This document shows positions 1,231 through 13,417 of a stretch of DNA of 13,417 nt, piece by piece. Position numbers and translations under genes: made by a program. The stretch is from a virus (Duplodnaviria > Heunggongvirae > Uroviricota > Caudoviricetes). The stretch covers positions 1-13,417 of the IMG/VR virus record IMGVR_UViG_2526164690_000043. One strand, given 5' to 3'. The first letter of the stretch is position 1. The number at the start of each line of letters is the position of its first letter. The notes beneath the pieces were generated by a model that saw only the letters and a list, made by a program, of their open reading frames with translations, searched no databases and was not told the DNA's origin.

Positions 1231-1251
1231 TTTTTTTGCGATTTTTCAGGA

Positions 1252-1313
1252 TGCGGACAACGTGAAACAACGAGACACAACGACGAACAACAAGGAACAA
1301 AATGGAACAACGG
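1252..1313 (+). repeat. Array A: six tandem 10-bp units, each ending in (G)AACAAC (helically phased boxes)
   Basis: ACAAC at 1257-1261, 1267-1271, 1277-1281, 1287-1291 and 1307-1311, plus ACAAA at 1297-1301. The register is exactly 10 bp and the array begins about 20 bp after the int stop. Confidence 0.8.
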
Positions 1314-1512
1314 GTTAAAAATCAGCCATCGTAATAACCATTTGATTTTTATAGGTGTACTGTTTTTTTATACACTGGCGAATCACTCTTAAAAATATGT
1401 AAAAAAGGCGTAAAAGTAAAATTTTATGCCTTTGCATCATAATGAATTAAAAGAGTTTTTATTCTCATTCCCCCTGCTTCTGTAAAACGACCGCCGCCAG
1501 TGTTTGCCATTC

Positions 1513-1566
1513 CACAAACACCCTGACACAATCCGACACAACCCAACCCAATAATCCACCCAATGA
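1513..1566 (+). promoter_or_regulatory. CA-rich tract with 10-bp-spaced GACACAA(C) boxes just upstream of alpA (degenerate relative of array A)
   Basis: GACACAA at 1525-1531 and GACACAAC at 1535-1542, preceded by ACAAACA at 1514-1520 and followed by CCCAA repeats. It lies 30-80 bp upstream of the alpA start. Function unknown. Confidence 0.4.
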
Positions 1567-1594
1567 CTCTTTAAGAAACAACAAAGGGGGAATT

Positions 1595-1783
1595 GTGTTA
1601 AGCACAGATCGCTTTATACGTGAAAAAGAATGTCAGCAACTTACAGGCCTGAGCCGCTCATGTCGGTACCGCCTGGAAAAAGCCGGACAATTCCCATCAC
1701 GGCGTAAGCTGGGCGGTCGTTCCGTTGGCTGGTCTTTATCCGAAGTTCTGGCATGGAAGGACAGCTGCGAGGCAGTTCACTAA
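1595..1783 (+). CDS. alpA: AlpA-family (Vis/excisionase-like, HTH_17) phage regulatory protein
   Basis: 62-aa ORF with a GTG start preceded by AAAGGGGG. RFIREKECQQLTGLSRSCRYRLEKAGQFPSRRKLGGRSVGWSLSEVLAWK matches the AlpA pattern (TGLSrst.Y.l...G.FP.p.kLG.rsv.W...Ev..W). Confidence 0.9.
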   Translation: MLSTDRFIREKECQQLTGLSRSCRYRLEKAGQFPSRRKLGGRSVGWSLSEVLAWKDSCEAVH

Positions 1784-1835
1784 TCAGGCTGGCGGCACAC
1801 AGCCGCCACCCATCCACTAATACAGAGATCTAACC

Positions 1836-2738
1836 ATGAATACTGGATATTCTCCCGAACAAGGGCGGGGCTTCGTTCGTCCTGAAAAACAGAATCTGCA
1901 AAATTTTGCCGAAATTATTCCGGTTATTTCCGGCCTTACTGGCGGGAGTGAAACCAATATTGTTAACGCCAGAGCGTTGCAGATGTTTGATGATAAAAAG
2001 GGAGTAAATTTAACTTACACCCCTGACGGCAATCAGAATATGAGCATTATCTCTGAGTCAGGTTTCTACAAACTAATAAAAACAAAAAGCGCCCCGTTGC
2101 CGGAGCGCCTTTGTGAACAATTAACCTACTGCGCAAAAAATGAATCTGAGCAGTGGGATTATATCAACCATGTGGAGAAGCGCCACAATTGCCGAATAAC
2201 GGGCAAAACAAAGGCCACCCGCTACGGTGGCCCCTCGACACAAGCTACACGTTATCCCCAACGCATGAGCATTGCCAACAATGCCACATTTGCGGCTGGT
2301 GGGCAATGCAATCAGTCTGGTTCAGTTCGTTGCCATACCTGCAATGAGCGCTTTTCCCTGTACTCTTTAAGGAATTGCTCAAGGGCAAAAGCACATGGCG
2401 CGAATCTTTCTGATTCATGCTCTATCTTTCTGCGCCGTCTTTTCCGTGCCGGTGATAATGTTTTGGTCAATTCTTTATCGGTCATTGTGTTGTCCTGCAT
2501 AGCAATGCGCCGTAGTTACTCACACCACGGCGCTGGTGATGGTTACTCCTGCTCTTTGGCCTTGCGACGCTGGCGGCGTTTGATCTCACCTTTAACGGCA
2601 GTAACTATAAATTGCGCCTTGCTTTCACCTTCATCTAAATTTTTTCTAAGTCTGCAACAACATCATGCGGGAATCTGGCATTTAACTGTTGCGACTTATT
2701 ATTTGTTGAACCTGTTGCCATTACTGAATCCTCTCTAA
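1836..2738 (+). CDS. Hypothetical protein. Only the first ~100 codons look coding and the 3' ~600 nt of the ORF is probably an artefactual extension.
   Basis: The N-terminal part contains NMSIISESGFYKLIKTKSAP, reminiscent of the end of a Bro-N/antirepressor-type domain (weak). From ~2150 onward the translation is Cys/Ser/Arg/Leu-rich, as expected for an antisense frame. That part overlaps two better-supported minus-strand genes and their terminator. One extra A in the A6 run at 2135-2140 would give a stop (..CAKK*) at ~2144. Confidence 0.35.
   Translation: MNTGYSPEQGRGFVRPEKQNLQNFAEIIPVISGLTGGSETNIVNARALQMFDDKKGVNLTYTPDGNQNMSIISESGFYKLIKTKSAPLPERLCEQLTYCAKNESEQWDYINHVEKRHNCRITGKTKATRYGGPSTQATRYPQRMSIANNATFAAGGQCNQSGSVRCHTCNERFSLYSLRNCSRAKAHGANLSDSCSIFLRRLFRAGDNVLVNSLSVIVLSCIAMRRSYSHHGAGDGYSCSLALRRWRRLISPLTAVTINCALLSPSSKFFLSLQQHHAGIWHLTVATYYLLNLLPLLNPL
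2204..2232 (-). terminator. Rho-independent terminator of the minus-strand two-gene unit
   Basis: The minus strand reads GGCCACC-GTAGCG-GGTGGCC followed by TTTGTTTTG: a 7-bp GC-rich stem (2213-2219/2226-2232), a 6-nt loop and a T-tract. On the + strand no T-tract follows. Confidence 0.65.
2312..2485 (-). CDS. Small, highly basic hypothetical protein (57 aa from the second ATG)
   Basis: MTDKELTKTLSPARKRRRRKIEHESERF.. with AGGA 7 nt upstream of the ATG at 2485. It lies 57 nt downstream of the RHH gene on the same strand. The 3' end is uncertain, because a frame change near 2318 would extend it to a stop at 2245, just before the terminator. Confidence 0.45.
   Translation of the reverse strand: MTDKELTKTLSPARKRRRRKIEHESERFAPCAFALEQFLKEYREKRSLQVWQRTEPD
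2543..2721 (-). CDS. Ribbon-helix-helix (Arc/CopG/MetJ-like) DNA-binding protein, split by a 1-nt frameshift as given
   Basis: ATG at 2721 with AGAGGA 7 nt upstream. It reads MATGSTNNKSQQLNARFPHDVVADLEKI* (stop 2635-2637). The -1 frame continues LDEGESKAQFIVTAVKGEIKRRQRRKAKEQE* (stop 2543-2545). Joined, these give a typical ~59-aa RHH (beta strand QLNARFP, then two helices). The junction is the A6 run on the coding strand (T6 at 2640-2645). Confidence 0.65.
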
Positions 2739-2740
2739 GT

Positions 2741-2835
2741 TGGTGCGATTCAGTATACACAAAAAAAATTTCAGAGAAAGACTTGAAGTGCGATTCACTT
2801 ACTGATAGGTTAAAAACGAATGGTGCGATGCACCA
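2741..2835. promoter_or_regulatory. Divergent switch region: three operator-like copies of GTGCGAT(T/G)CA plus candidate divergent promoters
   Basis: TGGTGCGATTCAGTA at 2741-2755. AAGTGCGATTCACTT at 2786-2800 (AAGTG-N5-CACTT palindrome). TGGTGCGATGCACCA at 2821-2835 (TGGTGC-N3-GCACCA palindrome). Core starts are 45 and 35 bp apart. The candidate rightward promoter is TTGAAG (2783-2788), 17 bp, TAGGTT (2806-2811), overlapping copy 2. The candidate leftward -10 is TATACT (minus strand, 2752-2757), overlapping copy 1. Confidence 0.6.
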
Positions 2836-2911
2836 AACAACAACGCCCCGCAGTGGTGGCACACATGCAGGGCGTCTAACCACCAACGATAGCGAAAGTA
2901 TCGAGGTAGCT

Positions 2912-3112
2912 ATGAGAAATCATACCATACACCCGCAAGGGCGGGACTCGCACAACCTGAATAAATACATCTGGCGTTTTATCGCCCTGAGCACGGCACA
3001 ACCGCGCGTGATTACCATTGAGGCCACCAGCGAACAGGAAGCACGCCAGCAATCTCCGGCTGGCTGCGTGATGGTATTTGCTGCCCGTATTCGTCAGGGG
3101 GTAGGCTTATGA
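2912..3112 (+). CDS. Icd-like (host cell-division inhibitor-like) small protein, first gene of the rightward early operon
   Basis: 66 aa from the ATG at 2912 (GAGGT upstream). KYIWRFIALSTAQPRVITIEATSEQEARQQSPAGCVMVFAARIRQGV resembles the Icd-like family of P4-like islands (W.F.A....P.V....A.SE.EAR.......F.AAR). The track ORF starts at TTG 2783, which lies inside the operators. Confidence 0.6.
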   Translation: MRNHTIHPQGRDSHNLNKYIWRFIALSTAQPRVITIEATSEQEARQQSPAGCVMVFAARIRQGVGL

Positions 3113-3339
3113 GCCAGGAAATCACACTACAACAGGCAGCAGAACGCGCCCACCAAATCGAAGTTATTTGCGCACTGGCAGAGGATTACCCTGGCATGAT
3201 GACCGACAGCGAATCAGGGGCAATCATCGGCTTACTTAAACGCCTTAGCGGTGAGGTCTGCGTATTCCTGAGCGATGAACAGGAAAGAAGAACGCTTATT
3301 TCTAACGAAAAAAAATGCGGAGGGGTACATGTGCAATAA
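3109..3339 (+). CDS. Hypothetical protein (76 aa)
   Basis: ATGA start/stop overlap with the upstream gene and an acidic, helical composition. No family recognised. Confidence 0.55.
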   Translation: MSQEITLQQAAERAHQIEVICALAEDYPGMMTDSESGAIIGLLKRLSGEVCVFLSDEQERRTLISNEKKCGGVHVQ

Positions 3340-3553
3340 AACCACACCGGACGCAGCCGCCGCCGCGCTCACTACGCTGATGCACGCGCTTATTGATATT
3401 TCTGTTATTGCTGACAGGGCGCATAAACACGCAGCCAGAGAATCAGAATGCATCTTCCATTATTTAACATTTGTGCAGCTAAAAGCCGATCAGGCACTGG
3501 ATAAGGCCGGAAAAATTATCATGGCTGATGTGCAGGAGGTGCACCATGCATAA
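3329..3553 (+). CDS. Hypothetical protein (74 aa)
   Basis: ATG at 3329 preceded by GGAGGGG, so the internal start is preferred over the track start at 3275. No family recognised. Confidence 0.5.
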   Translation: MCNKTTPDAAAAALTTLMHALIDISVIADRAHKHAARESECIFHYLTFVQLKADQALDKAGKIIMADVQEVHHA

Positions 3554-3911
3554 CCTGTCAATTTCTGACCTTAACAGCATTCAGTTTGACGAGAAATTTA
3601 CCGGGCAGTTGCTGGTCAATGTGGAGAACGGGCGCATAGTGCGTAATTATCACCTGCCGGATGGTGCAATTGCCGGAAGCGTTGAAGCATTGCTGGAACT
3701 GGCGGAACGTGCGCGACTGATTAAGCCGTCAACGAGCCATCACGATGATGATCTGCATTTTACCGGATGTATGGTGAGTCACTACGAAAACGGCGTCGAG
3801 GTATCCTGCGAACGGCTGCGTGATGATTGCTGTTTCGGCACACTGCCGGAATTTATCGAGTTGCTGACCAGTTGCGGTTATCAGGTCATTCAGGGGGGTA
3901 AACATGCGTGA
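3546..3911 (+). CDS. Hypothetical protein (121 aa)
   Basis: ATG at 3546 preceded by AGGAGG, overlapping the upstream stop. No family recognised. Confidence 0.6.
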   Translation: MHNLSISDLNSIQFDEKFTGQLLVNVENGRIVRNYHLPDGAIAGSVEALLELAERARLIKPSTSHHDDDLHFTGCMVSHYENGVEVSCERLRDDCCFGTLPEFIELLTSCGYQVIQGGKHA

Positions 3912-4125
3912 TGATCGTTTTAATTCCCTGAAACAGGAATTTTCCGGCGTTCCTGATGATGCGGCTGATGCGCTTTCGTCAATATCTGAAATTATGCGGG
4001 TGGCTTTTTTCTTTCTTTGCACTGATGAGCACAGAGATACAGGGCTAAATATTCTTGATATTGCCGCTAACTATGCTGATTTCGTGACAGAAGCTGTTTT
4101 AAGAAAAACAACGGACGGGGATTAA
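3904..4125 (+). CDS. Hypothetical protein (73 aa)
   Basis: ATG at 3904 preceded by GGGGGT, with an 8-nt overlap of the upstream gene. No family recognised. Confidence 0.55.
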   Translation: MRDDRFNSLKQEFSGVPDDAADALSSISEIMRVAFFFLCTDEHRDTGLNILDIAANYADFVTEAVLRKTTDGD

Positions 4126-4126
4126 T

Positions 4127-4360
4127 ATGCGTGATATTTACCACGAAACAATAGACCGCGCATTTAGTGCCCTTGCTTACGCTGAAGGTATGTACGAAAT
4201 ATTGCGCATATGGCTTGAAACACTTGGCGACAATGAACGCGACAAACAAAAATCAAGAATTGTCACGGCATTAATAACGCTTCTTGAGCCTGTAATAATG
4301 GAACTGCAAGAAATAGATCTATTGCACGACAGATATAAAGAACAGCACACCGGAGAATAA
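4127..4360 (+). CDS. Hypothetical protein (77 aa)
   Basis: ATG one nt after the upstream stop, preceded by GGGGA. Helical composition. No family recognised. Confidence 0.55.
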   Translation: MRDIYHETIDRAFSALAYAEGMYEILRIWLETLGDNERDKQKSRIVTALITLLEPVIMELQEIDLLHDRYKEQHTGE

Positions 4361-4365
4361 AAATA

Positions 4366-4665
4366 ATGAAACTTAAATATTCTGGCTTAACTGCCAGTGG
4401 CAACACTCACCCTAAATTTACGCGCGGCGATATTTACCGCGACCAGTACGGCGGCACGGTAATGATTAAGGGCGTGGCGGGACGGTGCGTAACCTACCGC
4501 CGTGAAGGTTACGAATATGATTGCGTGATGCCTGTTTATCAGTTCCGGCGTGATTTTTCTCTGGTACAGACCGCGCCGCATAACGTGCCCACCAGCAACG
4601 CCAGGGCACGGGCAAACATCCAGAAGCTGAAAACCATGATTAACGGATTCAGGGGCAAGAAATGA
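4366..4665 (+). CDS. Hypothetical protein, possibly DUF4222-like
   Basis: GDIYRDQYGGTVMIKGVAGRCVTYRREGYEYDCVMPVYQFRRDFSLV resembles the small beta-rich DUF4222 pattern seen in enterobacterial prophages. This rests on memory only. Confidence 0.45.
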   Translation: MKLKYSGLTASGNTHPKFTRGDIYRDQYGGTVMIKGVAGRCVTYRREGYEYDCVMPVYQFRRDFSLVQTAPHNVPTSNARARANIQKLKTMINGFRGKK

Positions 4666-6059
4666 AAAGCGCACCGAACTTAAAAAAACAGCCTTACGAC
4701 AAGATGACCGAAGTCATTATTTTTGCGGGTAGTGATGCCTGGGCACATGCGAAACAGTGGCAGGAACAGGACGGGCGACTGGCTGGCGATAATGTGCCTC
4801 CCGTTGTGCTGGCTGATGATCAACTGGATGAACTGGCAGACCTGAGAATCATCGACGAGGGGCGCTATTGTGTCCGGCTGTACAAGGCAGGCCACATCAG
4901 GCCATCAAATATTAATGCCATTGCGCACAAGCTGGCAGCGGCAGGTGTACAGGATGCGAATTACTACCCCGATGGGATGCACAGCCAGAAGCGGGAGAAC
5001 TGGCGCGAATATCTGGAACGGGAGCGCGGGGAAAAGCAGGAAGAAAAAGGCCACCAGCGCAAAACAAAGCTACCGATGAGCGTTGGTTCTGCCGGATATG
5101 ACACGCAACTGGATTACGTGGTTAAGGGGATTATTCCGGCGGTATCGCTTTGCAGCATATACGGGGCGAGCGGTTCCTATAAATCGTTCCTTGCGGGTTC
5201 GTGGGCGTGTCACGTTTCCACGGGCCGCCAGTGGGGAGGCCGCAGGGTGGCGCATGGCGCTGTTCTCTATGTGGTTGGTGAAGGCGGTATCGGCGTTCCG
5301 CGTCGTGTAAAAGCCTGGGAGGTTGTGCACGGTGAGCAGGTGAAAAATCTTTACCTTGTAAACCGTCCCATCTTTCCGGCTGCCCCGCTTGATGTTGATG
5401 AAATGGTTATCGCTGCCCGTCAGGTGGAGCGGGAAACGGGTAAACCTGTTCGAATGATTATTCTGGATACGCTGGCGCGCTGCTTTGGCGGCAATGATGA
5501 AAATGACTCCCGTGATATGGGGACGTTTATCCGTGGGTGTGACGAACTGAAACGACGCACAGGGGCCACGGTGCTGGTGGTTCACCATTCCGGCAAGGAT
5601 GAGACGAAAGGCGCGCGCGGTTCCAGTGCATTTCGTGCTTCGCTGGATGCTGAATACCGGATACGCAGGGAGGACGCAGGAAGCGAAGCGCTGGTTATCT
5701 CATGCACCAAAATGAAGGACGCGGAGGAACTCAAAGAAGCCGCATATGACTTACGCGTGGTGGAGCTTTTTACCGACGCTGACGGGGAGTTAATCACGTC
5801 GCTGGTGGTGGTGGATAAGCCGCGCCCTCCCGTTGAACTGGAGCGCATCGAGGAGGCAGGGAACAAGACGGAGAATCACGCCGCGCTATGGCAGTGCATC
5901 AGAACACGAACAGCACACGGGGAGGCGTGCACTATCGCCCTTCTCCGCGACGATATGAAAAAGCTGGGGTATGAGATGAAGCACTTCCGGCGCTGGCTGT
6001 ACAAGCTGGAAAATGATGGCGTAATCGTTATTGACGGTGATGACGTGCGCCCGCTGTAA
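4662..6059 (+). CDS. Replication initiator/helicase, RepA-like RecA-fold ATPase (AAA_25 type) with a C-terminal winged-helix-like tail
   Basis: 465 aa. Walker A is YGASGSYKS and Walker B is VRMIILDTLARC. VLVVHHSGKDETKGARGSSA is typical of RepA/DnaB-like AAA_25 proteins. ATGA-coupled to the upstream ORF, and the iteron array begins at its stop codon. Confidence 0.85.
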   Translation: MKSAPNLKKQPYDKMTEVIIFAGSDAWAHAKQWQEQDGRLAGDNVPPVVLADDQLDELADLRIIDEGRYCVRLYKAGHIRPSNINAIAHKLAAAGVQDANYYPDGMHSQKRENWREYLERERGEKQEEKGHQRKTKLPMSVGSAGYDTQLDYVVKGIIPAVSLCSIYGASGSYKSFLAGSWACHVSTGRQWGGRRVAHGAVLYVVGEGGIGVPRRVKAWEVVHGEQVKNLYLVNRPIFPAAPLDVDEMVIAARQVERETGKPVRMIILDTLARCFGGNDENDSRDMGTFIRGCDELKRRTGATVLVVHHSGKDETKGARGSSAFRASLDAEYRIRREDAGSEALVISCTKMKDAEELKEAAYDLRVVELFTDADGELITSLVVVDKPRPPVELERIEEAGNKTENHAALWQCIRTRTAHGEACTIALLRDDMKKLGYEMKHFRRWLYKLENDGVIVIDGDDVRPL

Positions 6060-6260
6060 AAAGTGGGGAGTAAAAGTGGGGAGAGTGGGGAATTTAACAA
6101 AATTGAAACATAATTACCCACTTTCCCACCTGTATATACCCAAAAAAGTGGGGAGTAAAAAATATATTGAAAAACATCACGTTAGAATCACAAAAAGAAG
6201 AGGTGGGGAGACGGTGGGTAATTTCAAAAAGTGGGGAGCAAAAGTGGGGAGTAGTGGGGA
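6059..6260. repeat. Iteron-type origin of replication (ori)
   Basis: Nine direct copies of RGTGGG(G/T)A start at 6062, 6075, 6084, 6147, 6202, 6213, 6230, 6243 and 6253. Two inverted copies lie at 6115-6122 and 6124-6130. A triple-iteron block (6059-6095) is repeated at 6227-6263. These flank AT-rich segments at 6092-6116 and 6155-6200. Confidence 0.8.
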
Positions 6261-6512
6261 ATGAACAGAAAAACCAGAGATAAGACAGCGCCAAAATATA
6301 AAGCGTTAGACATGACAGAGCTTTCCCTAAAGGTGGCAATCAGAACGATAGACCGACACGTAGGGGAAGGATACGCGAAGGAACATCCCGACCTGATAAG
6401 CGCATTCATGACCACAGCAGCGGCAAACTTTGCCACGCTGACAGAACGGGAGATTGCCGAAGCGGAACAGGTAACAACCATCAACGTTAAAACCGGAGAG
6501 GTGGAATCATGA
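6261..6512 (+). CDS. Hypothetical protein (83 aa; alternative start at 6312)
   Basis: The ATG follows the last iteron directly, and GGGGA could act as the SD. The gene is coupled (ATGA) to the next ORF. No family recognised. Confidence 0.5.
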   Translation: MNRKTRDKTAPKYKALDMTELSLKVAIRTIDRHVGEGYAKEHPDLISAFMTTAAANFATLTEREIAEAEQVTTINVKTGEVES

Positions 6513-6814
6513 GCGAACCAAAATTTGGTGAAAAACTTTACAAGCACAACGGACGGATCACGATTCAGCAAATAAGCGCAGCTACACCAGGCTGGTGGGT
6601 TGAAACAGACGAAGGATCATCACCCGTGGCATCATGGGCGCTTTGTGTGCTTAGTTACCCTGACCGCGATGTGTATCAGGATATTCTGCCTGTGATATCC
6701 ACTGACAAAGGCATGAAACCCGTAGACATCAAAAACATGGGTTTTCAGTGCGTAATGCTCACTGAAAAAATGATGGAAGAGATGAAAAAGAACAACGCCG
6801 GATCGCTTCACTGA
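6509..6814 (+). CDS. Hypothetical protein (101 aa)
   Basis: ATGA overlap with the upstream ORF and a plausible globular composition. No family recognised. Confidence 0.55.
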   Translation: MSEPKFGEKLYKHNGRITIQQISAATPGWWVETDEGSSPVASWALCVLSYPDRDVYQDILPVISTDKGMKPVDIKNMGFQCVMLTEKMMEEMKKNNAGSLH

Positions 6815-6823
6815 GGTGGCAAT

Positions 6824-7234
6824 ATGACAGCACAAATTGCAGCTTACGGGCGCCTGGTGGACGACCCGCTGGTAAAACAGAGCAGCAAGGGCACACCGAT
6901 GACTCTGGCGCGTATGGCGGTATCGTTGCCATGCAGCCAGGCACATGACGGACAGGCGACGTTATGGTTATCGGTTATCGCATTTGGCAAACAGGCCGAT
7001 TTCCTGGCTAAACATCAAAAAGGCGATGTTGCCAGCGTATCCGGCACGATGCAGGTAAGCCAGTGGACCGGACAGAACGGGGAAACACGGCAGGGGTATC
7101 AGGTTATTGCAGACAGCGTAATCAGTGCCCGTGCGGCACGTCCTGGCGGGAACAGACGCAAAACCACAGGCACACAGGGTAATCAGCCACCAGCGGGAGG
7201 CGATGACCCTTACGGTGATGATATTCCGTTCTGA
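6824..7234 (+). CDS. ssb: Single-stranded DNA-binding protein
   Basis: 136 aa. The OB-fold N-terminus (GRLVDDPLVKQSSKGTPMTLARMAV..WLSVIAFGKQADFLAKHQKGDVASVSGTMQVSQW) is followed by a Gly/Pro/Gln-rich linker and the canonical acidic tip DDIPF at the C-terminus. Confidence 0.9.
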   Translation: MTAQIAAYGRLVDDPLVKQSSKGTPMTLARMAVSLPCSQAHDGQATLWLSVIAFGKQADFLAKHQKGDVASVSGTMQVSQWTGQNGETRQGYQVIADSVISARAARPGGNRRKTTGTQGNQPPAGGDDPYGDDIPF

Positions 7235-7246
7235 GGGGTGGGGACG

Positions 7247-7519
7247 ATGGTACATGACCGCATAGCGGAAGAGCTGGAGGCGAAAGGCTTTTACCGGAGA
7301 GCGTCGGCGCGATGGGGTGAAGTCATGCAGCTGGTGGAGACAGACAAGGAACGGCATCACATCACGATGCGACGGCTGGAATGTTGCAGGAAGGCACAGA
7401 GGCCACCGGAGCCACCGGATAATTACGGAGACCTGAAAAAGGCAGTCGATCGCACTTATGCCGAAATGGGGATAGATGGTGCTGGTGATGAAATATGGCG
7501 CAATTACCAGGACAGCTAA
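7247..7519 (+). CDS. PerC-family transcriptional regulator-like protein
   Basis: MVHDRIAEELEAKGFYRRASARWGEVM matches the PerC/Pch N-terminal signature (A..LE..G.[WY]RRA..RW.EVM). About 90 aa, as is typical. The track start is GTG 7238, but ATG 7247 is preferred. Confidence 0.6.
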   Translation: MVHDRIAEELEAKGFYRRASARWGEVMQLVETDKERHHITMRRLECCRKAQRPPEPPDNYGDLKKAVDRTYAEMGIDGAGDEIWRNYQDS

Positions 7520-7525
7520 TCACAC

Positions 7526-7549
7526 AGCCGGAGAAATCCGGCTTTTTTT
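7526..7549 (+). terminator. Rho-independent terminator T1
   Basis: AGCCGGA-GAAA-TCCGGCT followed by a T-run through 7549, starting 7 nt after the perC-like stop. Confidence 0.8.
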
Positions 7550-7644
7550 GCACCAGTTGAAACGGTATGGCGCATTACCGGGTTTTCGTCACGGTCTGGC
7601 ATAGTTACTATCTGAAACAAACAGACACAACAGAGGAAAAAACA

Positions 7645-7986
7645 ATGCCGATGAAATTTGATGAGATATTAAAACAGCGTGATAAATACCATGCTGACAA
7701 CATGGAGACGATGAGCATCAATGATTACCGCGCATTCCTGGAGACGGGCGCACTGATTGAAAAGGATCAGCATGGTTTTGTGAGATGTGCTCTATCCGGT
7801 GAAATGCTGGCGGTAAATCCTGAACAGATAGATGCATTGATAGAATTTCTGAAAGGGATCAGGACTGAGCACGCATACAGCCGGAGCAATCCGGTCTTTT
7901 TGTCATTTTTTGTAAATTATTTGTTCGTGGTTGTTCCACGTTGTTCACTGACAGGATCGGCATATTTTACCCGAACTGAATCATGA
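7645..7986 (+). CDS. Hypothetical protein; 3' end doubtful because the ORF reads through a terminator-like hairpin
   Basis: ATG at 7645 preceded by AGAGGA. MPMKFDEILKQRDKYHADNMETMSINDYRAFLETGALIEKDQHGFVRCALSGEMLAVNPEQIDALIEFLKG looks coding. The tail (..FLSFFVNYLFVVVPRCSL..) crosses hairpin T2 and repeat array B. One extra G in the G3 run at 7855-7857 would end the protein as ..FLKGDQD* just before T2. Confidence 0.45.
   Translation: MPMKFDEILKQRDKYHADNMETMSINDYRAFLETGALIEKDQHGFVRCALSGEMLAVNPEQIDALIEFLKGIRTEHAYSRSNPVFLSFFVNYLFVVVPRCSLTGSAYFTRTES
7879..7901 (+). terminator. Terminator-like hairpin T2, a near-copy of T1
   Basis: CAGCCGGAGCAATCCGGTCTTTTTG compared with T1 CAGCCGGAGAAATCCGGCTTTTTTTG. 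The stem is shorter (GCCGGA/TCCGGT with a G-U pair) and is followed by CTTTTTGTCATTTTTTG. Confidence 0.5.
7917..7950 (-). repeat. Array B: three 10-bp-phased GAACAA(C) boxes, inverted relative to array A
   Basis: On the + strand, TTGTTC sits at 7921-7926, 7931-7936 and 7941-7946. The minus strand reads GTGAACAACGTGGAACAACCACGAACAAATAA, the same unit and register as 1252-1313. Confidence 0.75.
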
Positions 7987-8022
7987 GTATTCTCGCCCGT
8001 GGTGCCAGGACGCTGGGGCCAC

Positions 8023-8070
8023 TTTCCCGCCTGTTAATGTGCTCGCCAATATTCATTACCAGGCGGGAAA
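8023..8070 (+). promoter_or_regulatory. Perfect 11-bp inverted repeat in the leader of the head operon
   Basis: TTTCCCGCCTG (8023-8033) and CAGGCGGGAAA (8060-8070) are separated by 26 nt. No T-tract follows on either strand, so this is an RNA stem-loop or a protein-binding palindrome rather than a terminator. Confidence 0.55.
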
Positions 8071-8123
8071 ACGATCGGTGCGATTGCTGATTTCCTTATG
8101 AAAAACGGTTGAGTGTTTGCCGC

Positions 8124-8160
8124 GTCCTGGAGTTCCTTACTTAACCCCAGGACTTTTTTT
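8124..8160 (+). terminator. Intrinsic terminator-like hairpin abutting the capsid start codon
   Basis: GTCCTGG (8124-8130) pairs with CCAGGAC (8147-8153), and 8132-8134/8143-8145 can extend the stem. T7 (8154-8160) follows, then ATG at 8161. The only SD-like element for the capsid gene (AGGA, 8149-8152) lies in the 3' arm of the stem. Confidence 0.65.
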
Positions 8161-9318
8161 ATGCCGAGAATAATCGAATTACGCCAGCAGAAAACCGCCA
8201 TTAAAAATCAGATGCGCGACATGCTGGAGAACGCGGAAAAAGAAAACCGCAGTCTTAACGATGCTGAGGGCGCAAAATTTGACGAATTACGCGCTAAAGC
8301 TGAATCCCTCGATAAAGACATTTCCCGCCTTGAAGCCATTGCAGACGAAGAGCGCAGCAAGCCAGGTAAAAGCAGTCAGACCACTGACCCCGCAGAACTA
8401 CGCAACTACATTCTGACAGGTGAAACCCGCGCATTAAGTACAGGCGTTCCCGCTGATGGTGGTTATACCGTTATCCCTGAACTGAACACCGAAATCATGC
8501 GAATGCTGGCGGATGAATCCACCATGCGCCGCATCTGTACCGTGAAGAAAATCAGCAGCAACGAGTTTAAGCAGCTTGTTTCCGCTGGCGGTGCGACCGT
8601 TAACCACGGTGAAGAGGGTAAGGCACGCGAACAGACCAGCCCCCCGCAGATTAACGAGGTGAGCATTAAGCTGTATCCGGTCTATGCGTACCCGCGCACC
8701 ACACAGGAAATCGTGGATTTTTCCGATGTGGACATCCTTTCATGGCTGACGGGTGAGATTGGCGACACCTTCACGGAAACCGAAGAAAGCGATCTGGTTG
8801 TGGGCGACGGTGACAAAAAAGCAAAAGGTTTTTTATCCGTACCCCGTGCAGAGAAGAACGACAAAGAGCGTGATTTTGGTACGTTGCAGGTAATTAAACC
8901 TTCCGAATCTCTGGCGTGGACATCTGCGGACCCGCTGATCGACCTGAAATTTGCATTACGTAAAAATAACCGCAAAAACGCGGTCTGGGTGGTTAACTCC
9001 ACGACGGCGGCAAAACTTCAGAAGGTGAAGAACGCGAACGGTGATTATATCTGGCGCGACCGTTTACAGGCGGGTGATCCTGATACGTTGCTGGGCCTTC
9101 CGGTCGAATATCTGGAGTTTATGCCTGATAACGTTATTGCCCTGGGTGACTTCAAACGCGGTTACTACATTGTTGATCACGAAACAGGTGTTCGCACCAG
9201 ACCGGACAACCTCACAGAGCCGGGCTTCATCAAAATTTTCACGCAGAAATATTTAGGCGGTGGCGTGGTGGATTCGAACGCGATCAAGATTCTGGAACTG
9301 CCACAGGACGACGATTAA
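8161..9318 (+). CDS. Major capsid protein, HK97 fold/family, with an N-terminal coiled-coil delta (scaffolding) domain
   Basis: 385 aa from the ATG at 8161 (the track ORF starts at GTG 8113, inside the leader). The N-terminus IELRQQKTAIKNQMRDMLENAEKENRSLNDAEGAKFDELRAKAESLDKDISRLEAIADEER is typical of HK97-family delta domains. The body carries family-like stretches such as GGYTVIPELNTEIMRML and ..NAVWVVNSTTAAKLQKVKNANGDYIWRD..LLGLPVEY. Confidence 0.92.
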   Translation: MPRIIELRQQKTAIKNQMRDMLENAEKENRSLNDAEGAKFDELRAKAESLDKDISRLEAIADEERSKPGKSSQTTDPAELRNYILTGETRALSTGVPADGGYTVIPELNTEIMRMLADESTMRRICTVKKISSNEFKQLVSAGGATVNHGEEGKAREQTSPPQINEVSIKLYPVYAYPRTTQEIVDFSDVDILSWLTGEIGDTFTETEESDLVVGDGDKKAKGFLSVPRAEKNDKERDFGTLQVIKPSESLAWTSADPLIDLKFALRKNNRKNAVWVVNSTTAAKLQKVKNANGDYIWRDRLQAGDPDTLLGLPVEYLEFMPDNVIALGDFKRGYYIVDHETGVRTRPDNLTEPGFIKIFTQKYLGGGVVDSNAIKILELPQDDD

Positions 9319-9328
9319 CAGCATACAG

Positions 9329-9348
9329 AAGGGGCTTAAAAGCCCCTT
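9329..9348 (+). other. Stem-loop between the capsid and protease genes
   Basis: AAGGGGCT-TAAA-AGCCCCTT, followed by TAGTGTTTTAT (a weak T-tract). It may act as a partial terminator or mRNA-stabilising hairpin that raises capsid output relative to downstream genes. Confidence 0.5.
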
Positions 9349-9380
9349 TAGTGTTTTATGGGTGAAAAATTATGAAGAGT

Positions 9381-9930
9381 ATGGAAATCCGGTCATACGG
9401 AAATCACCACCAGCGCCAGCAACACGCTGACAGGCTACGTTGTTCGCTGGGATAAGCTTTCAGAGCTGCTATGGGGGGAGTTTTACGAAAAATTCCAGCG
9501 GGGAGCGTTTACTGAATGGCTTGCGGCGGGTAATGACGTTCGCGGCCTGTATGAGCATGACCACAGCATGTTGCTGGGGCGTACCCGTTCCGGCACGCTG
9601 AAACTGGAAGAGGACGAAACAGGGTTACGCTTTGAACTGACCCCACCGGATACCAGCACAGGGCGGGACGTTATCGAACTGGTTAAACGTGGTGATATAT
9701 CCGGCATGAGCTTTGGCTTTCGTTCCCGTAAGGATGTATGGGATACCACAACAGATCCATGCGTGCGCACCGTGCTGGTTGCGGAACTGTACGAAATTAC
9801 CGTCACATCCGTACCGGCTTACCCTGATTCCGGCGTGGAGCTGGCCCGCCGCTCCCTGTACGAGCAGCACCCCGAAAAAATGCCGCGTGCGGATAATCGC
9901 CGCTGGTGGGCGGATTTAGCGGGGGTGTGA
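9381..9930 (+). CDS. Prohead (capsid maturation) serine protease, HK97 gp4 family, frameshifted near codon 7 as given
   Basis: ATG 9381 gives MEIRSYG, then runs out of frame to a stop at 9450-9452. The frame opening at 9400 reads EITTSASNTLTGYVVRWDKLSELLWGEFYEKFQRGAFTEWLAAGNDVRGLYEHDHSMLLGRTRSGTLKLEEDETGLRFEL..RGDISGMSFGF.., which carries the family His (EHDH) and Ser (GMSFGF) motifs. The track ORF 9568-9930 covers only the distal part. The junction is at GG 9399-9400. Confidence 0.85.
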
Positions 9931-9931
9931 T

Positions 9932-11146
9932 ATGTGGCCTTTTCAGAAGAAAAAAAAGAGCAGCGCTAGCATGACGCTTGATGAGTTTATGGCGCTGGCT
10001 GGCACATCGAACACGGGGGCGGGTGAGTACGTATCATCGGGGACAGCGGAATCACTGCCCGCCGTCATGAACGCCGTCACGGTCATCTCTGAGGCGGTGG
10101 CTACCATGCCGTGTTACCTGTACCTGGTACGCAATGAGAAGGGGAAGGAGGCCCGAGAGTGGCTTGATTCTCATCCGGTCGATCACATCCTCAACGAGCG
10201 CCCGAACGCATGGCAAACCCCCTACCAGTTTAAGCGAATGATGATCCGCCACTGCCTGTTAAACGGTAATGCTTATGCGGTGATTCAGTGGGGGCGTGAT
10301 GGTTTTCCGGTGGCTTTACATCCTTACCCGCCGCAGTCGGTGAACGTTGAGCAGACAGGTGAGCATAACTGGCGCTACTGCATCACTGACGCCTACACCG
10401 GAAACACCCGCAACTATTTACCGTGGGAGGTTCTCCACCTTCGTTACTCCACGGATGACGGTTTTATGGGGCGCTCACCTGTAACCATCTGCCGCGAATC
10501 GCTGGGGCTTGGGCTGGCCCAACAACGCCACGGCGCGAGCGTGATGCGTGATGGCATGATGGCGGCAGGGGTTATCACGTCAGGCGAATGGCTGGACGGC
10601 GTGAAGGGCAAACAGGCATTAGCCGCACTGGAACGCTACAAAGGGGCCAGAAACGCCGGAAAAACGCCCATCCTTGAAGGGGGTATGAGCTATCAGCAGC
10701 TGGGCATGAGTAATCAGGATGCTGAATGGCTGGCCTCCCGTCGCTTCACCATTGAAGACATCGCCCGAATGTTCAACGTCTCGCCGATTTTTCTGCAGGA
10801 ATACAGCAACAGCACCTATAGCAATTTCAGCGAGGCAAGCCGCGCATTTCTCACCATGACGATGCGCCCGTGGCTGGCGAACTTTGAGCAGCAGATAAAA
10901 AACGCCCTGCTGGTGGCCTCGCCTGTACCTGGTATCCGGTATCAGGTGGAGTTTGTACAGCGCGGACCTGTTACGGGCCACACCTGGCGAACGCTTTGCC
11001 ACCTATGAACGCGGCATCAAATCCGGCGTTATGTGCCCGAACGAAGCCCGCGAACGTGAAGGGCTGTCCCGCGTGATGGTGGTGATGAGTTCAGCCAGGC
11101 ATGGAAACAGGAAGTAAAAATCAGCGAGGGAGAAAAACCGGAATGA
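9932..11146 (+). CDS. Portal protein, HK97 family, with two compensating frameshifts in the 3' end as given
   Basis: ORF 9932-11008 (358 aa) has portal-like content (..HPVDHILNERPNAWQTPYQFKRMMIRHCLLNGNAYAVI.., ..FTIEDIARMFNVSPIFLQEY..). The conserved C-terminus is readable only by moving to another frame from ~10953 (LYSADLLRATPGERFATYERGIKSGVMCPNEAREREGLS) and back at ~11070 (..DGGDEFSQAWKQEVKISEGEKPE*, stop 11144-11146). That stop overlaps the next gene's ATG in an ATGA. Confidence 0.88.
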
Positions 11147-11481
11147 ACATAGGGCGACTGCGTGACAGGGTAACGATTCAGACCCTGAAACAGACCAGGG
11201 ATATAACCGGCGAAATACTCGAAACGTGGGTGGACGGTCACACACTCTGGGCAAGCGTGAACATGATCAGCAGCAAGGAGGCCATTTCATCGGGTGCAGA
11301 ACTGGCGACTGGAACGGTAAGGATATGGATACGCTACAGGAAGGACATCAACGCCACCAGCCGGATAAAGGTCAATACGGGGCCGCTGGCGGGGCGTGTA
11401 CTGAATATCATCGGGCAACCGCTGCCGGATGCCGCCAGGACACGCCTTGAAATTCTTTGTCGTGAGGGCGCGGAAAAATGA
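11143..11481 (+). CDS. Head-closure / head-tail joining protein (Phage_H_T_join, SPP1 gp16-like)
   Basis: MNIGRLRDRVTIQ...ETWVDGHTLWASVNMISSKEAISSG...VRIWIRYRKDINATSRIKV...LEILCRE matches the family pattern (L..RV.I......W......WA.v...s..E........i.IRYR.di....RI.....l.l.C.E). The track start at 11101 is replaced by ATG 11143, which is ATGA-coupled to the portal gene. Confidence 0.85.
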   Translation: MNIGRLRDRVTIQTLKQTRDITGEILETWVDGHTLWASVNMISSKEAISSGAELATGTVRIWIRYRKDINATSRIKVNTGPLAGRVLNIIGQPLPDAARTRLEILCREGAEK

Positions 11482-11774
11482 CAGAAGAACTTATCACCCT
11501 GGAAGAAGTGAAACTCCATTGCCGCATCGATGGCGACGAGGAAGACCAGTTAATCAGCGGATACATTGCCGCATCGCTTGAGGCGTGCCAGATACATATA
11601 GGCAGGCGCTTTGATGACGGGCTGGAGTTCACGCCGGCCATAAAGATTGGCTGCATGATGTTTATCGCTCACCTGTACGAGAATCGCCAGCTGGTAGCGG
11701 ATAACGCAAAAACACGCGTACCCATGACGATAGGCGCACTCTGGACGGCTTACCGTGATGTGGGGGTGTACTGA
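11478..11774 (+). CDS. gp6-like head-tail connector (adaptor) protein (Phage_connect_1)
   Basis: LITLEEVKLHCRIDGDEEDQLISGYIAASLEACQIHIGRRF....IAHLYENRQ matches the gp6-like signature (l.evK.hlRid.d.eD.li..li.aA......y.gr......lva.lYenR). ATGA-coupled upstream. Confidence 0.85.
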   Translation: MTEELITLEEVKLHCRIDGDEEDQLISGYIAASLEACQIHIGRRFDDGLEFTPAIKIGCMMFIAHLYENRQLVADNAKTRVPMTIGALWTAYRDVGVY

Positions 11775-12213
11775 TGCCGTGGCAACCATTAAGACGATGT
11801 ACAGAACCAGGCTGTAACAGGCGCGTTAAGTCCGGCAAGTGTGAGGAGCACAGGCGGGCGGCATGGCGTGCAGAGGATGCCAGACGAGGACACCGCCGCG
11901 CGCGTGGGTACTCCAGACAGTGGGAAAAATACCGCGCCATGTATCTGAGTAAAACCCGTTATGCGTGCGATGCCTTGAGAAGGGGATATATACGCCCGCC
12001 GTGGTGGTGGATCACATTATCCCGATTAATGGCGGTGATGATGTTCTCTTCTGGCCCGAATGGAACCATCAGCCATTGTGCCAGGCGTGTCATAACCAGA
12101 AAACGAAGTGGCTTGATCCGGCAACAAAAAGCAAGCGTGCCGCAGGTGGATTTCGTGAAGAGGAAGAACGGGCCGCTAACCGCAATAACTGGATGTATGA
12201 CGCTGATGAATGA
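11774..12213 (+). CDS. HNH endonuclease (HK97 gp74-like packaging accessory nuclease), frameshifted as given
   Basis: The N-terminal part (11774 onward) reads MPWQPLRRCTEPGCNRRVKSGKCEEHRR...RGYSRQWEKYRAMYLSK. The core, in the -1 frame (open from 11953; track ORF 11965-12213), reads NPLCVRCLEKGIYTPAVVVDHIIPINGGDDVLFWPEWNHQPLCQACHNQKT (H-N-H motif). The junction is the A4 run at 11951-11954, and A5 would fuse the two as ..YLSKNPLCVRC... Confidence 0.85.
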
Positions 12214-12379
12214 GCGGGAACAAAACCGCCTTATCCGTGGACTTATAAGGCAGCGTGACGCATGGAAGACACAGGAAACAGGGCATAAAGATAAAGCGTC
12301 AGGACGCGCAGAACGCATCACAGCGAAGCGATTAACCGACCGTGACCGCGAGGTTATGGAATGTTTCCGCAATCGCTGA
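12197..12379 (+). CDS. Possible small charged protein (57-60 aa) between HNH and the cos/terS region
   Basis: This is the distal part of track ORF 11774-12379, which becomes an independent ORF once the HNH frame is corrected. ATGs at 12197 and 12206 overlap the HNH stop. It reads NEREQNRLIRGLIRQRDAWKTQETGHKDKASGRAERITAKRLTDRDREVMECFRNR. No family recognised. Confidence 0.35.
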   Translation: MTLMNEREQNRLIRGLIRQRDAWKTQETGHKDKASGRAERITAKRLTDRDREVMECFRNR

Positions 12380-12501
12380 TGAGGCTGTATGACGGGGTGG
12401 GGGGCGTTTTCAGGACAAACCCGACCCCGCCGGGCACCGAACGCCTCCTCAAATTTTTATGCACGGGAATTTTTTGAAAAATAATCTGGCGAAAAATAAG
12501 C
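12380..12501. other. Candidate cos / terminase recognition region
   Basis: This is the only sizeable non-coding gap in the packaging module, and it lies just upstream of terS, as in HNH-dependent HK97-like cos phages. A G-rich block ACGGGGTGGGGGGCG (12392-12406) faces a C-rich block CCCGACCCCGCCGGG (12420-12434). Phased A/T tracts follow (AAATTTTTAT, AATTTTTTGAAAAATAAT; 12451-12485). Confidence 0.45.
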
Positions 12502-12858
12502 ATGGCAAGACCACCGAAAGCCCCCGCCTACCTGAATGACATCGCCGTGAAGCAGTGGCGGGAAAAATCGCGGCAGCTTGCGGAACGGGGAGACCTTACC
12601 CCCGCCGACTGGAGTAATCTGGAACTGTATTGCGTCAATTACTCGATATACCGGAAAGCCGTCGCAGACCTTGCGGCGCGCGGGTTCAGCATTGTTAACA
12701 GTCAGGGTGGCGAGAGCAGAAACCCCGCATTAAGCGCAAAATCCGACGCTGAAAGAGTGATGATAAAAATGGCCTCCTTGCTCGGTTTTGACCCGATAAG
12801 CCGCCGTAAAAATCCACCGGAAACAGAAGAAGAGGACGAGCTTGACCGCCTGGAATAA
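12502..12858 (+). CDS. terS: Terminase small subunit, P27 family
   Basis: PKAPAYLNDIAVKQWREKSRQLAERGDLTPADWSNLELYCVNYSIYRKAVADLAARGFSIVNSQGGESRNPALSAKSDAERVMIKMASLLGFDPISRRK follows the P27-family TerS pattern (P..L...a...W..l...l...g.l...D...l..yc......r.a...l...G.......g....nPa........l......efGltP.sR.k). Confidence 0.9.
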   Translation: MARPPKAPAYLNDIAVKQWREKSRQLAERGDLTPADWSNLELYCVNYSIYRKAVADLAARGFSIVNSQGGESRNPALSAKSDAERVMIKMASLLGFDPISRRKNPPETEEEDELDRLE

Positions 12859-13417
12859 GTACGCAGAAGACGTAAAAACGGGCAAAATTCCGGCCTGTAA
12901 ACGGCTGAAACAGGCCGTTAAACGGTACTTTTCGGACCTTGAAAGCCCCCTTTACACGTTCGATCGTGAGGTTGTGGAGCGGTTTATTGCCTTTTCCAGG
13001 GTGTGCCCGCACGTAAAAGGGCCGATGCGTGGCAGACCCATTGAGCTGGAGCCGTGGCAGCAGTTCGCCTTTGCGTGCATCCTCGGCTTTAAGGTTAAGG
13101 CCACCGGACGGCGCAAATACACGAGCGCCTTTATCGAAGTGCCGCGCAAAAATGCGAAATCCACGACCGCCGCGATTCTGGCTAACTGGTTTCTGATTAT
13201 GGAGAACGGTCAGCAGGATATCTACACCGCAGCGGTGAGCCGTGACCAGGCGCGGATCGTCTTTGATGATGCGCGTCAGATGTGCCTTTTATCCCGACCG
13301 TTACGCAGGCGGGTGAATATTCAGGCGCATAAGGTGATACACCCGAAAAGCAACAGCCTGTTAAAGCCGCTGGCAGCAAAAGCGGCAACCATCGAGGGAA
13401 CAAACCCCAGCCTTTCC
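12842..13417 (+). CDS. terL: Terminase large subunit (Terminase_1-like ATPase domain), 5' partial, running off the window
   Basis: The frame is open from 12800 to the window end and is absent from the track because it has no stop. The likely TTG start at 12842 has GAGGA 5 nt upstream and overlaps the terS end. It reads TAWNKYAEDVKTGKIPACKRLKQAVKRYFSDL..HVKGPMRGRPIELEPWQQFAFACILGF..IEVPRKNAKSTTAA (Walker A-like PRKNxKS)..IYTAAVSRDQARIVFDDA. Confidence 0.9.
   Translation, partial: MTAWNKYAEDVKTGKIPACKRLKQAVKRYFSDLESPLYTFDREVVERFIAFSRVCPHVKGPMRGRPIELEPWQQFAFACILGFKVKATGRRKYTSAFIEVPRKNAKSTTAAILANWFLIMENGQQDIYTAAVSRDQARIVFDDARQMCLLSRPLRRRVNIQAHKVIHPKSNSLLKPLAAKAATIEGTNPSLS

Follow-up and report, generated by a model that had tools for sequence, protein, structure and literature searches.

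This work concerns a small array of direct repeats, hereafter array B, that lies in front of the capsid gene in a 13,417-nt stretch of viral DNA (positions 1 to 13,417 of IMG/VR virus record IMGVR_UViG_2526164690_000043, Caudoviricetes; the whole stretch is called the window). Strains of E. coli O103 and O111 carry, between roxA and phoQ, a chromosomal island to which the window is 99.7% identical. Its genes run in the order int, alpA, small early genes, a RepA-family helicase gene, iterons, SSB, a PerC-family gene, a small open reading frame (ORF) and the capsid operon; the latter starts with the major capsid protein gene (8161-9318, + strand), which is followed by genes for protease, portal, head closure, connector, HNH, TerS and TerL. 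The int/alpA/rep block followed by the island's own capsid-to-TerL set, without tail or lysis genes and at a non-prophage site, identifies the window as a capsid-forming phage-inducible chromosomal island (cf-PICI) of the EcCIEDL933 type; our annotation matches the organization described for EcCIEDL933 (bioRxiv 10.1101/2022.09.08.507074).

The core of array B (7921-7946) consists of three TTGTTC boxes on the + strand, at 7921-7926, 7931-7936 and 7941-7946, spaced by exactly 10 bp and read as GAACAA on the - strand, on which we annotate them as putative AlpA sites. Two weaker boxes in the same phase and on the same strand, TTGTCA (7900) and TTGTAA (7910), and the 13-mer TTTTGTAAATTAT (7908-7920) occupy the adjoining segment 7900-7920; the + strand from 7908 to 7949 reads TTTTGTAAATTAT-TTGTTCgtgg-TTGTTCcacg-TTGTTCactg. 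A second array, array A, carries GAACAA at 1285, 1295 and 1305, the exact reverse complement of the array B boxes in an identical 10-bp register, and box 1 of array B reads GAACAAA on the - strand, a variant found in array A too (GGAACAAAAT). A preliminary description of this DNA had reported the three boxes as an inverted copy of array A, with the same register and variant and about 210 bp upstream of the capsid start; coordinates and sequence agree in full, and the distance from the end of the last box to the capsid ATG (8161) is 215 bp. The signal of the two arrays resides in their phasing, because GAACAA as such occurs 13 times in the window, an ordinary count, whereas three copies of one exact hexamer, spaced by 10 bp, turned up in 1 out of 2000 shuffles that preserved dinucleotides; array A contributes two such triples to the window and array B one, three in all. 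Array B and the six-box array A both present at least three short direct repeats about one helical turn apart, as is expected of a site array for a recombination directionality factor (RDF).

Array B lies within an annotated reading frame, ORF7645, that is open to 7986 and runs across the array because one G is lost at 7862/7863 (CAG-GAC in the window vs. CAGGGAC in relatives). The tail of the ORF over array B is a 1-bp frameshift artefact and is non-coding, as had been suspected before: the ORF7645 proteins of relatives end at ...FLKGIRD*, ahead of both a terminator-like hairpin and the array. ORF7645 itself (7645-7871, + strand) encodes a conserved small protein of 75 aa in relatives, with no match in Pfam; in many cf-PICIs, members of its family (~75-85 aa, 30-95% identity) are encoded directly before the capsid operon. 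The terminator-like hairpin (GCCGGAGCAATCCGG followed by a T run; 7880-7901, + strand) closes the upstream transcription unit just before array B, and in relatives array B is intergenic, right after this hairpin. A near-identical terminator-like hairpin is present after perC (7526-7549), both copies having the form AGCCGGAGnAATCCGG followed by a T run, and the pair suggests that a small cassette of gene plus terminator has been duplicated in the accessory region.

Further copies of the box module occur elsewhere in the island. Array A (1254-1313, + strand) comprises six phased ACAA boxes at 1256-1312 (GGACAACG, GAAACAAC, GACACAAC, GAACAACA, GAACAAAA and GAACAACG), placed directly past the stop codon of int, with alpA 280-340 bp downstream, in the orientation opposite to that of array B; among 20 variants of the alpA upstream region, the ACAA cores are kept while the spacers vary. 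Closer to alpA, the promoter scan predicts a promoter (TTGCCA, 17 nt, CACAAT, with an upstream TG; 1504-1544, + strand), and two boxes, GACACAAT at 1526 and GACACAAC at 1536 (cores at 1527 and 1537; set GACACAATCCGACACAAC, 1525-1544), lie over its predicted -10 element and start. This segment differs among the variants with the phased ACAA boxes retained, and the position of the set would suit negative feedback by the same factor. A two-box set, GAAACAAACAGACACAAC (7613-7633, + strand; cores at 7616 and 7626), which is 80% identical to part of array A, is located directly upstream of ORF7645.

The att arms of the island, which lie outside the window, also contain the module. We placed the island ends by comparison with the empty K-12 attB, the repeat (att core) being GGACATATTT. 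In each arm, a doubled 12-mer, GGTGTAGTTAAT, is separated by about 18 bp from a set of three TTGTTY boxes: in the coordinates of locus L001, the attL arm has boxes at 2844-2940, with the three-box and 12-mer stretch at 2911-2978 and the doubled 12-mer at 2955-2978, and the attR arm has boxes at 18264-18292, within a stretch of 18264-18332 that ends in the doubled 12-mer at 18309-18332; the attL arm additionally holds five phased GTTTC/GTTCA boxes. Boxes are thus found in the att arms, near the core and beside putative arm-type sites of the integrase (Int), where sites of an RDF are expected. The pattern TTGTnnC-N3-TTGTTYCACGTTGT is common to array B, the two arrays of the arms and array A when reverse-complemented, and array B aligns to the attL-arm and attR-arm modules over about 40 bp.

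Judged by sequence comparison, the island holds at least four paralogous modules (attL arm, attR arm, array A and array B). The earlier two-array description is therefore correct for both arrays it named and incomplete, having missed the six boxes of array A, the weak boxes, the two-box sets and the att arms. Its further proposal, that arrays A and B form a special inverted pair bracketing the early region, is not supported: array B is oriented as are both att-arm arrays, array A being the sole inverted one, and two classical PICIs with the same int/alpA type and a lambda-like capsid/decoration/terS module (L097 and L098) retain array A and the att-arm arrays but show no phased GAACAA array in front of the late module. 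Because such an array is lacking there, array B is not a general feature of the AlpA regulon but belongs to the cf-PICI packaging module.

Phased triple direct repeats near an att core are also typical of integrase arm-type sites, e.g. P'1-P'3 of lambda, and one could suppose that Int, and not AlpA, occupies the arrays: they occur in both att arms, and Int is present in every array B locus with enough upstream sequence. The doubled 12-mers, however, are the elements that track the Int allele, and the boxes do not, because GGTGTAGTTAAT changes to TGTGTGGTCAGT while TTGTTC stays: L034 and L053, whose Int is 65-66% identical, have TGTGTGGTCAGT as the doubled 12-mers (about 620-645 and 15470-15495 in L034), while their TTGTTC arrays persist in the two arms, behind alpA and ahead of the capsid gene; in L048, with an Int of 77%, GGTGTAGTTAAT is kept. 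The 12-mers in the att arms are probably the arm-type sites of Int. Among the loci compared, the boxes are constant over Int proteins 42-100% identical, which is not the behaviour of integrase arm sites, and array B is identical even in cf-PICIs embedded in helper prophages, which integrate at another site (the prophage terL) with an Int of 42% identity. These helper-embedded islands have no GAACAA array at their right end (the left end lies outside the loci compared). We reject Int arm sites as the identity of the boxes, given their independence of the Int allele, and consider occupation of the arrays by Int very unlikely. The helper-embedded islands also encode two tandem AlpA paralogues (L014, 1199-1762; L015, 2067-2630), 48% and 60% identical to the AlpA of the window, an arrangement consistent with a split of excision and transcription roles.

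Array B is widely distributed. It is present in 444 of 5426 E. coli genomes, and 84 E. coli genomes match in the array segment (7890-7946) alone, the flanks on either side having diverged. All 59 E. coli-type loci with enough upstream sequence carry the array in identical or near-identical form; their AlpA alleles are 53-100% identical to that of the window, and the set covers three alleles of AlpA and integrases that differ, whether PerC and ORF7645 are present or absent. The AlpA alleles of array-bearing loci have in common an Arg at the fourth position of an RSCRY-type segment, which we take to be the recognition helix; AlpA classes associated with other boxes have Ala. In other cf-PICIs (Rosenbergiella, Citrobacter, Erwinia and many IMG/VR contigs) the same position holds the 13-mer followed by about three phased units that vary with the lineage, e.g. 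GTACCCatgtTTACCCgcgcTTACCC.

The type of box at this position varies with the regulator encoded next to int: a GTYC box 1 goes with an AlpA-family regulator in 16 of 16 distinct combinations, and a TACY box 1 goes with a different helix-turn-helix (HTH) family in 5 of 6 (Fisher p = 2e-4, on samples that are not phylogenetically independent and with L084 as the exception). Similarity of the capsid protein does not predict box type, since L003 (73%) has TTACCC, whereas L054-L070 (73-75%) have TTGTTC. In one of the TTACCC lineages, the Erwinia psidii cf-PICI L005, a palindrome, TTAAGTACTTAA, is repeated three to four times about 20 bp apart upstream of the gene for an excisionase-like HTH protein (4683-4760); these operators are of a different type from the TTACCC boxes before the L005 capsid gene.

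These data also bear on whether the boxes bind something other than AlpA: a host protein (a response regulator or Fis), a helper-phage protein, or the products of perC or ORF7645. PerC belongs to a family of transcription activators and is encoded just upstream, ORF7645 is conserved beside the operon, and cf-PICIs of several genera retain the 13-mer TTTTGTAAATTAT in front of the capsid gene, whatever the box type or regulator, which points to a shared, possibly host, factor for part of the module. PerC is rejected as the binder, as it is missing from several loci with an identical array (L014, L055, L056, L060 and L065-L067), and ORF7645 is rejected as a box-specific binder, as it is absent from many array loci (L017-L019, L023 and others) and its identity does not track box type (43% to L014, with the same boxes, vs. 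42% to L004, with different boxes). A host factor would leave unexplained both the change of box type with regulator family within the Enterobacterales and the boxes in the att arms. As to a helper factor, EcCIEDL933 reproduction has been driven by alpA overexpression (10.1101/2025.02.11.637232), which we read, tentatively since a helper may have been present, as meaning that none is needed. On balance, a binder other than AlpA for the boxes is improbable.

The 13-mer calls for separate consideration. Joined to box 1, it yields GTAAATTATTTGTTC (7912-7926), an element of the form G-N13-C that is AT-rich in its core and whose G..C frame is kept in most lineages. Compared by eye with the Fis consensus GNTYAAAWTTTRANC, GTAAATTATTTGTTC has the outer G/C and a good right half and agrees at only 8 of 13 specified positions; a Fis-like host factor at this element is a speculation. 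Also by eye, the 13-mer has no suitably spaced partner hexamer that would make it a sigma-70 -35 or extended -10 element, and it is a poor match to a CRP or IHF site; we rejected these candidates.

Downstream of array B we predict a weak sigma-70 late promoter (-35 TTTACC at 7966-7971, a 16-nt spacer and -10 TATTCT at 7988-7993; + strand). In an alignment of 58 distinct leader sequences, the TTTAC and TAT..T columns, 16-17 nt apart, are conserved in at least 90% of the leaders, and the conserved -10 sits a few nucleotides upstream of a conserved hairpin. Late transcription would accordingly be predicted to start near 8000, which would centre the array B boxes at about -76, -66 and -56; the array lies about 55-80 bp upstream of the promoter, with the boxes 20 bp or more upstream of the predicted -35 element. 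The distance from the 13-mer to the conserved -10 is 77-80 nt in three lineage classes (hand count).

The predicted transcript begins with a structured 5' leader of the capsid operon (7999-8160, + strand; minimum free energy -66.4 kcal/mol, z = -4.39). Hairpin 1 (7999-8022) has an invariant GACG loop, hairpin 2 spans 8026-8067, and hairpin 3 (8125-8153, with a U7 run) contains the Shine-Dalgarno AGGA right ahead of the ATG. Comparison of 12 leaders across cf-PICI lineages revealed compensatory pairs in hairpin 1 and in a long-range stem. The leader has no match in Rfam; it may be a translational or stability control element.

The island encodes a suitable candidate for the box-binding protein, namely a small winged-helix RDF. 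AlpA (alpA, 1595-1783, + strand), the proposed binder, has 62 aa, belongs to the winged-helix Phage_AlpA proteins and shows the fold of an excisionase (RDF): it matches Pfam PF05930 (E = 3e-18) and PDB 8c3t (E = 2.6e-6), and its structural model (pLDDT 88.5) is closest to the GIsul2 excisionase 8c3t (TM 0.79/0.85), with further fold matches to RdfS, TorI and BldC. Published work on related islands shows that induction and transfer of EcCIEDL933 need alpA (bioRxiv 10.1101/2022.09.08.507074), that AlpA of EcCICFT073 activates its own promoter (PMC6092414) and that reproduction of EcCIEDL933 for particle purification was driven in an alpA-overexpressing strain (10.1101/2025.02.11.637232).

We propose that array B is an AlpA-bound cis-regulatory module of the cf-PICI late operon, which would link excision, autoregulation and late control; we hold this to be probable, with moderate confidence. 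AlpA is favoured as the binder because of the distribution of the boxes, their TorI-like architecture, their independence of Int allele, PerC and ORF7645, and the co-variation of box type with regulator family. In the proposed mechanism, the three strong and two weak TTGTTC-type boxes, phased by one helical turn, would be binding sites of the island's own AlpA, which would load head-to-tail on successive direct repeats, as do lambda Xis and TorI of KplE1. The attL- and attR-arm modules, beside the putative Int arm sites, would serve excision; the inverted six-box array A between int and alpA would serve autoregulation, auto-activation having been published for the same alpA allele type; and array B, upstream of the weak conserved sigma-70 promoter, would drive the structured leader and the capsid gene. 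Upon induction of alpA by a helper phage, one small protein would therefore trigger excision, its own boost and the capsid/packaging genes. AlpA as binder, the position of the promoter and the activating effect are the parts of the model that we infer.

The sign of the AlpA effect at the late promoter is a guess from position. RDFs at promoters usually repress, P2 Cox and 186 Apl among them. TorI represses PintS (PMC2951348), array A is inverted relative to array B, and array B directly follows a terminator, so that AlpA might bind array B and repress, insulate or loop to array A, rather than simply activate. The boxes lie wholly upstream of the predicted -35 element, however, a placement favourable to activation but unfavourable to occlusion; the island cycle depends on alpA (10.1101/2022.09.08.507074), and overexpression of the gene has been used to drive that cycle (10.1101/2025.02.11.637232). 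A loop between arrays A and B cannot be general, because several lineages, namely the helper-embedded cf-PICIs and islands of the L034 type, possess array B but lack the inverted array A as its partner. We regard repression, insulation or looping by AlpA as unlikely. The preliminary description had proposed that one factor, with AlpA as the candidate, couples excision and early control to the late operon, possibly through a loop; the comparative evidence speaks for the coupling, and nothing that we found bears on the loop as such.

It is also conceivable that array B is a functionless relic, an att-arm copy that stayed behind when recombination brought the packaging module and a PICI backbone together. 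Its alignment with both att-arm modules over about 40 bp and its lack in classical PICIs with the same alpA fit such an origin, which is plausible historically. Against a relic speak its conservation, seen in 59 loci and 444 of 5426 E. coli genomes, and the tracking of regulator family by box type at the same position. Present function is indicated in particular because only the array segment is kept between diverged flanks in 84 of those genomes and because the distance to the conserved -10 is near-fixed (77-80 nt by hand count in three classes) in lineages of several genera. We therefore consider a mere relic highly improbable. A cos or pac site at array B is likewise unlikely: HNH-dependent cos systems have their site near terS, and a 120-bp gap precedes terS at 12502.

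Several points weigh against the proposal that AlpA activates the late operon through array B. Besides the usual repressive action of RDFs, the non-independence of the co-variation samples and the lack of the array before the late module of classical PICIs, the promoter scan (threshold 9/12) made no call at 7966-7993, where the match is 8/12 and the promoter is a predicted one only; such weakness is as expected if the late promoter depends on an activator. The rule that links box type to regulator is only half shown, because the TTACCC (TACY) lineages (L003-L005, L072, L076, L079 and L092) yielded no convincing matching arrays at the att arms or upstream of the regulator gene. In EcCICFT073, int expression is unchanged by AlpA (PMC6092414), even though the stretch from the attL core to int is filled with boxes, and AlpA of PICMIs, minimalist chromosomal islands that phages induce, is an excisionase without transcriptional effects (PMC10803314). 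Finally, in the literature searched we found no published definition of PICI AlpA sites or of the EcCIEDL933 late promoter.

A broader and more tentative extension, to which we give somewhat less than even credence, is that the capsid operon is driven through a portable att-arm excision module made of phased RDF boxes and possibly a host Fis-type site; that a 62-aa protein would thereby be the single switch for excision, self-amplification and head production; and that the boxes have been exchanged in evolution to match the regulator (TTGTTC with AlpA, TTACCC with another HTH family). cf-PICIs are recently described, widespread satellites that build their own heads, and their late-operon switch is undescribed in the literature searched. 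If the proposal is true, array B provides an easily mutated cis-element and a one-protein model that joins helper sensing, excision and capsid synthesis; the recognition sequence of AlpA would be GTTC-type cores at 10-bp spacing, which could serve to predict AlpA targets in the many E. coli PICIs and would be useful in engineering satellites as delivery vehicles. Apart from these subjects, we observed three iterons, AAAAAGTGGGGAG(T/C)AAAAGTGGGGAG, at intervals of about 84 bp (6058-6270), immediately downstream of the gene for the RepA-family helicase; this region is likely the replication origin.

The closest parallel to the proposed module is TorI, the RDF of prophage KplE1/CPS-53, whose sites I3-I5 are three cores separated by 2 nt and which represses PintS (PMC2951348). 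I3-I5 in the K-12 attL (GTTCGtcatgGTTCGcttcaGATCG) and array B (GTTCGtggttGTTCCacgttGTTCA) both consist of three pentamers 10 bp apart, the cores being GTTCG, GTTCG and GATCG for TorI and GTTCG, GTTCC and GTTCA for array B. TorI (1z4h) is, like AlpA, a small winged-helix RDF (TM 0.64 to the AlpA model), too distant from the AlpA of the window for a sequence search to find, and its sites serve recombination and promoter control alike. The two systems differ in arrangement: the TorI sites abut the PintS -35 element and repress, whereas array B lies at least 20 bp upstream of the predicted capsid-operon -35, far from att, and is expected to activate.

Xis of lambda is a small winged-helix protein that binds head-to-tail on phased direct repeats (X1-X1.5-X2) in the P arm, with the Fis site F in attR overlapping. 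The AT-rich G-N13-C 15-mer that overlaps box 1 of array B recalls the overlap of F and X2, the Fis part being here pure conjecture from a partial motif. To our knowledge, lambda Xis does not activate a structural-gene operon; its structure is 1rh6 (cited in PMC8844411).

The logic of our proposal, in which one small excision protein sets promoter activity via multiple phased boxes, is like that of P4 Vis, P2 Cox and 186 Apl. These are RDFs that double as transcription regulators on direct-repeat arrays. Their targets, as far as we know, are early/lysogeny promoters or P4 late promoters, none of them a self-encoded capsid/terminase operon. AlpA and Vis, both of the AlpA family and satellite-encoded, are distant homologues (PMC6092414).

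The AlpA of P. aeruginosa, which has a Q21-reminiscent fold with a C-terminal HTH (residues to at least 142) and binds one GGGACG between -35 and -10 (PMC7969949, PMC9371919), shares with the system of the window a name, a positive-regulator role and a promoter followed by a terminator-like hairpin. The AlpA of the window, in contrast, has 62 aa and an excisionase fold, and its putative boxes lie upstream of the -35 element; Q-like antitermination of the P. aeruginosa type was rejected for these differences of protein family and site position. BldC of Streptomyces (6ama) has a fold similar to that of the window AlpA (TM 0.57-0.62), and as a transcription regulator it binds direct repeats cooperatively, head to tail; it is, however, a chromosomal developmental regulator with no recombination role and a sequence unrelated to AlpA. 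The kind of mechanism that we propose, an excisionase that is also a transcription factor on phased repeats, is thus already known from TorI, Cox, Apl and Vis; what would be new is its target, the satellite's own capsid operon.

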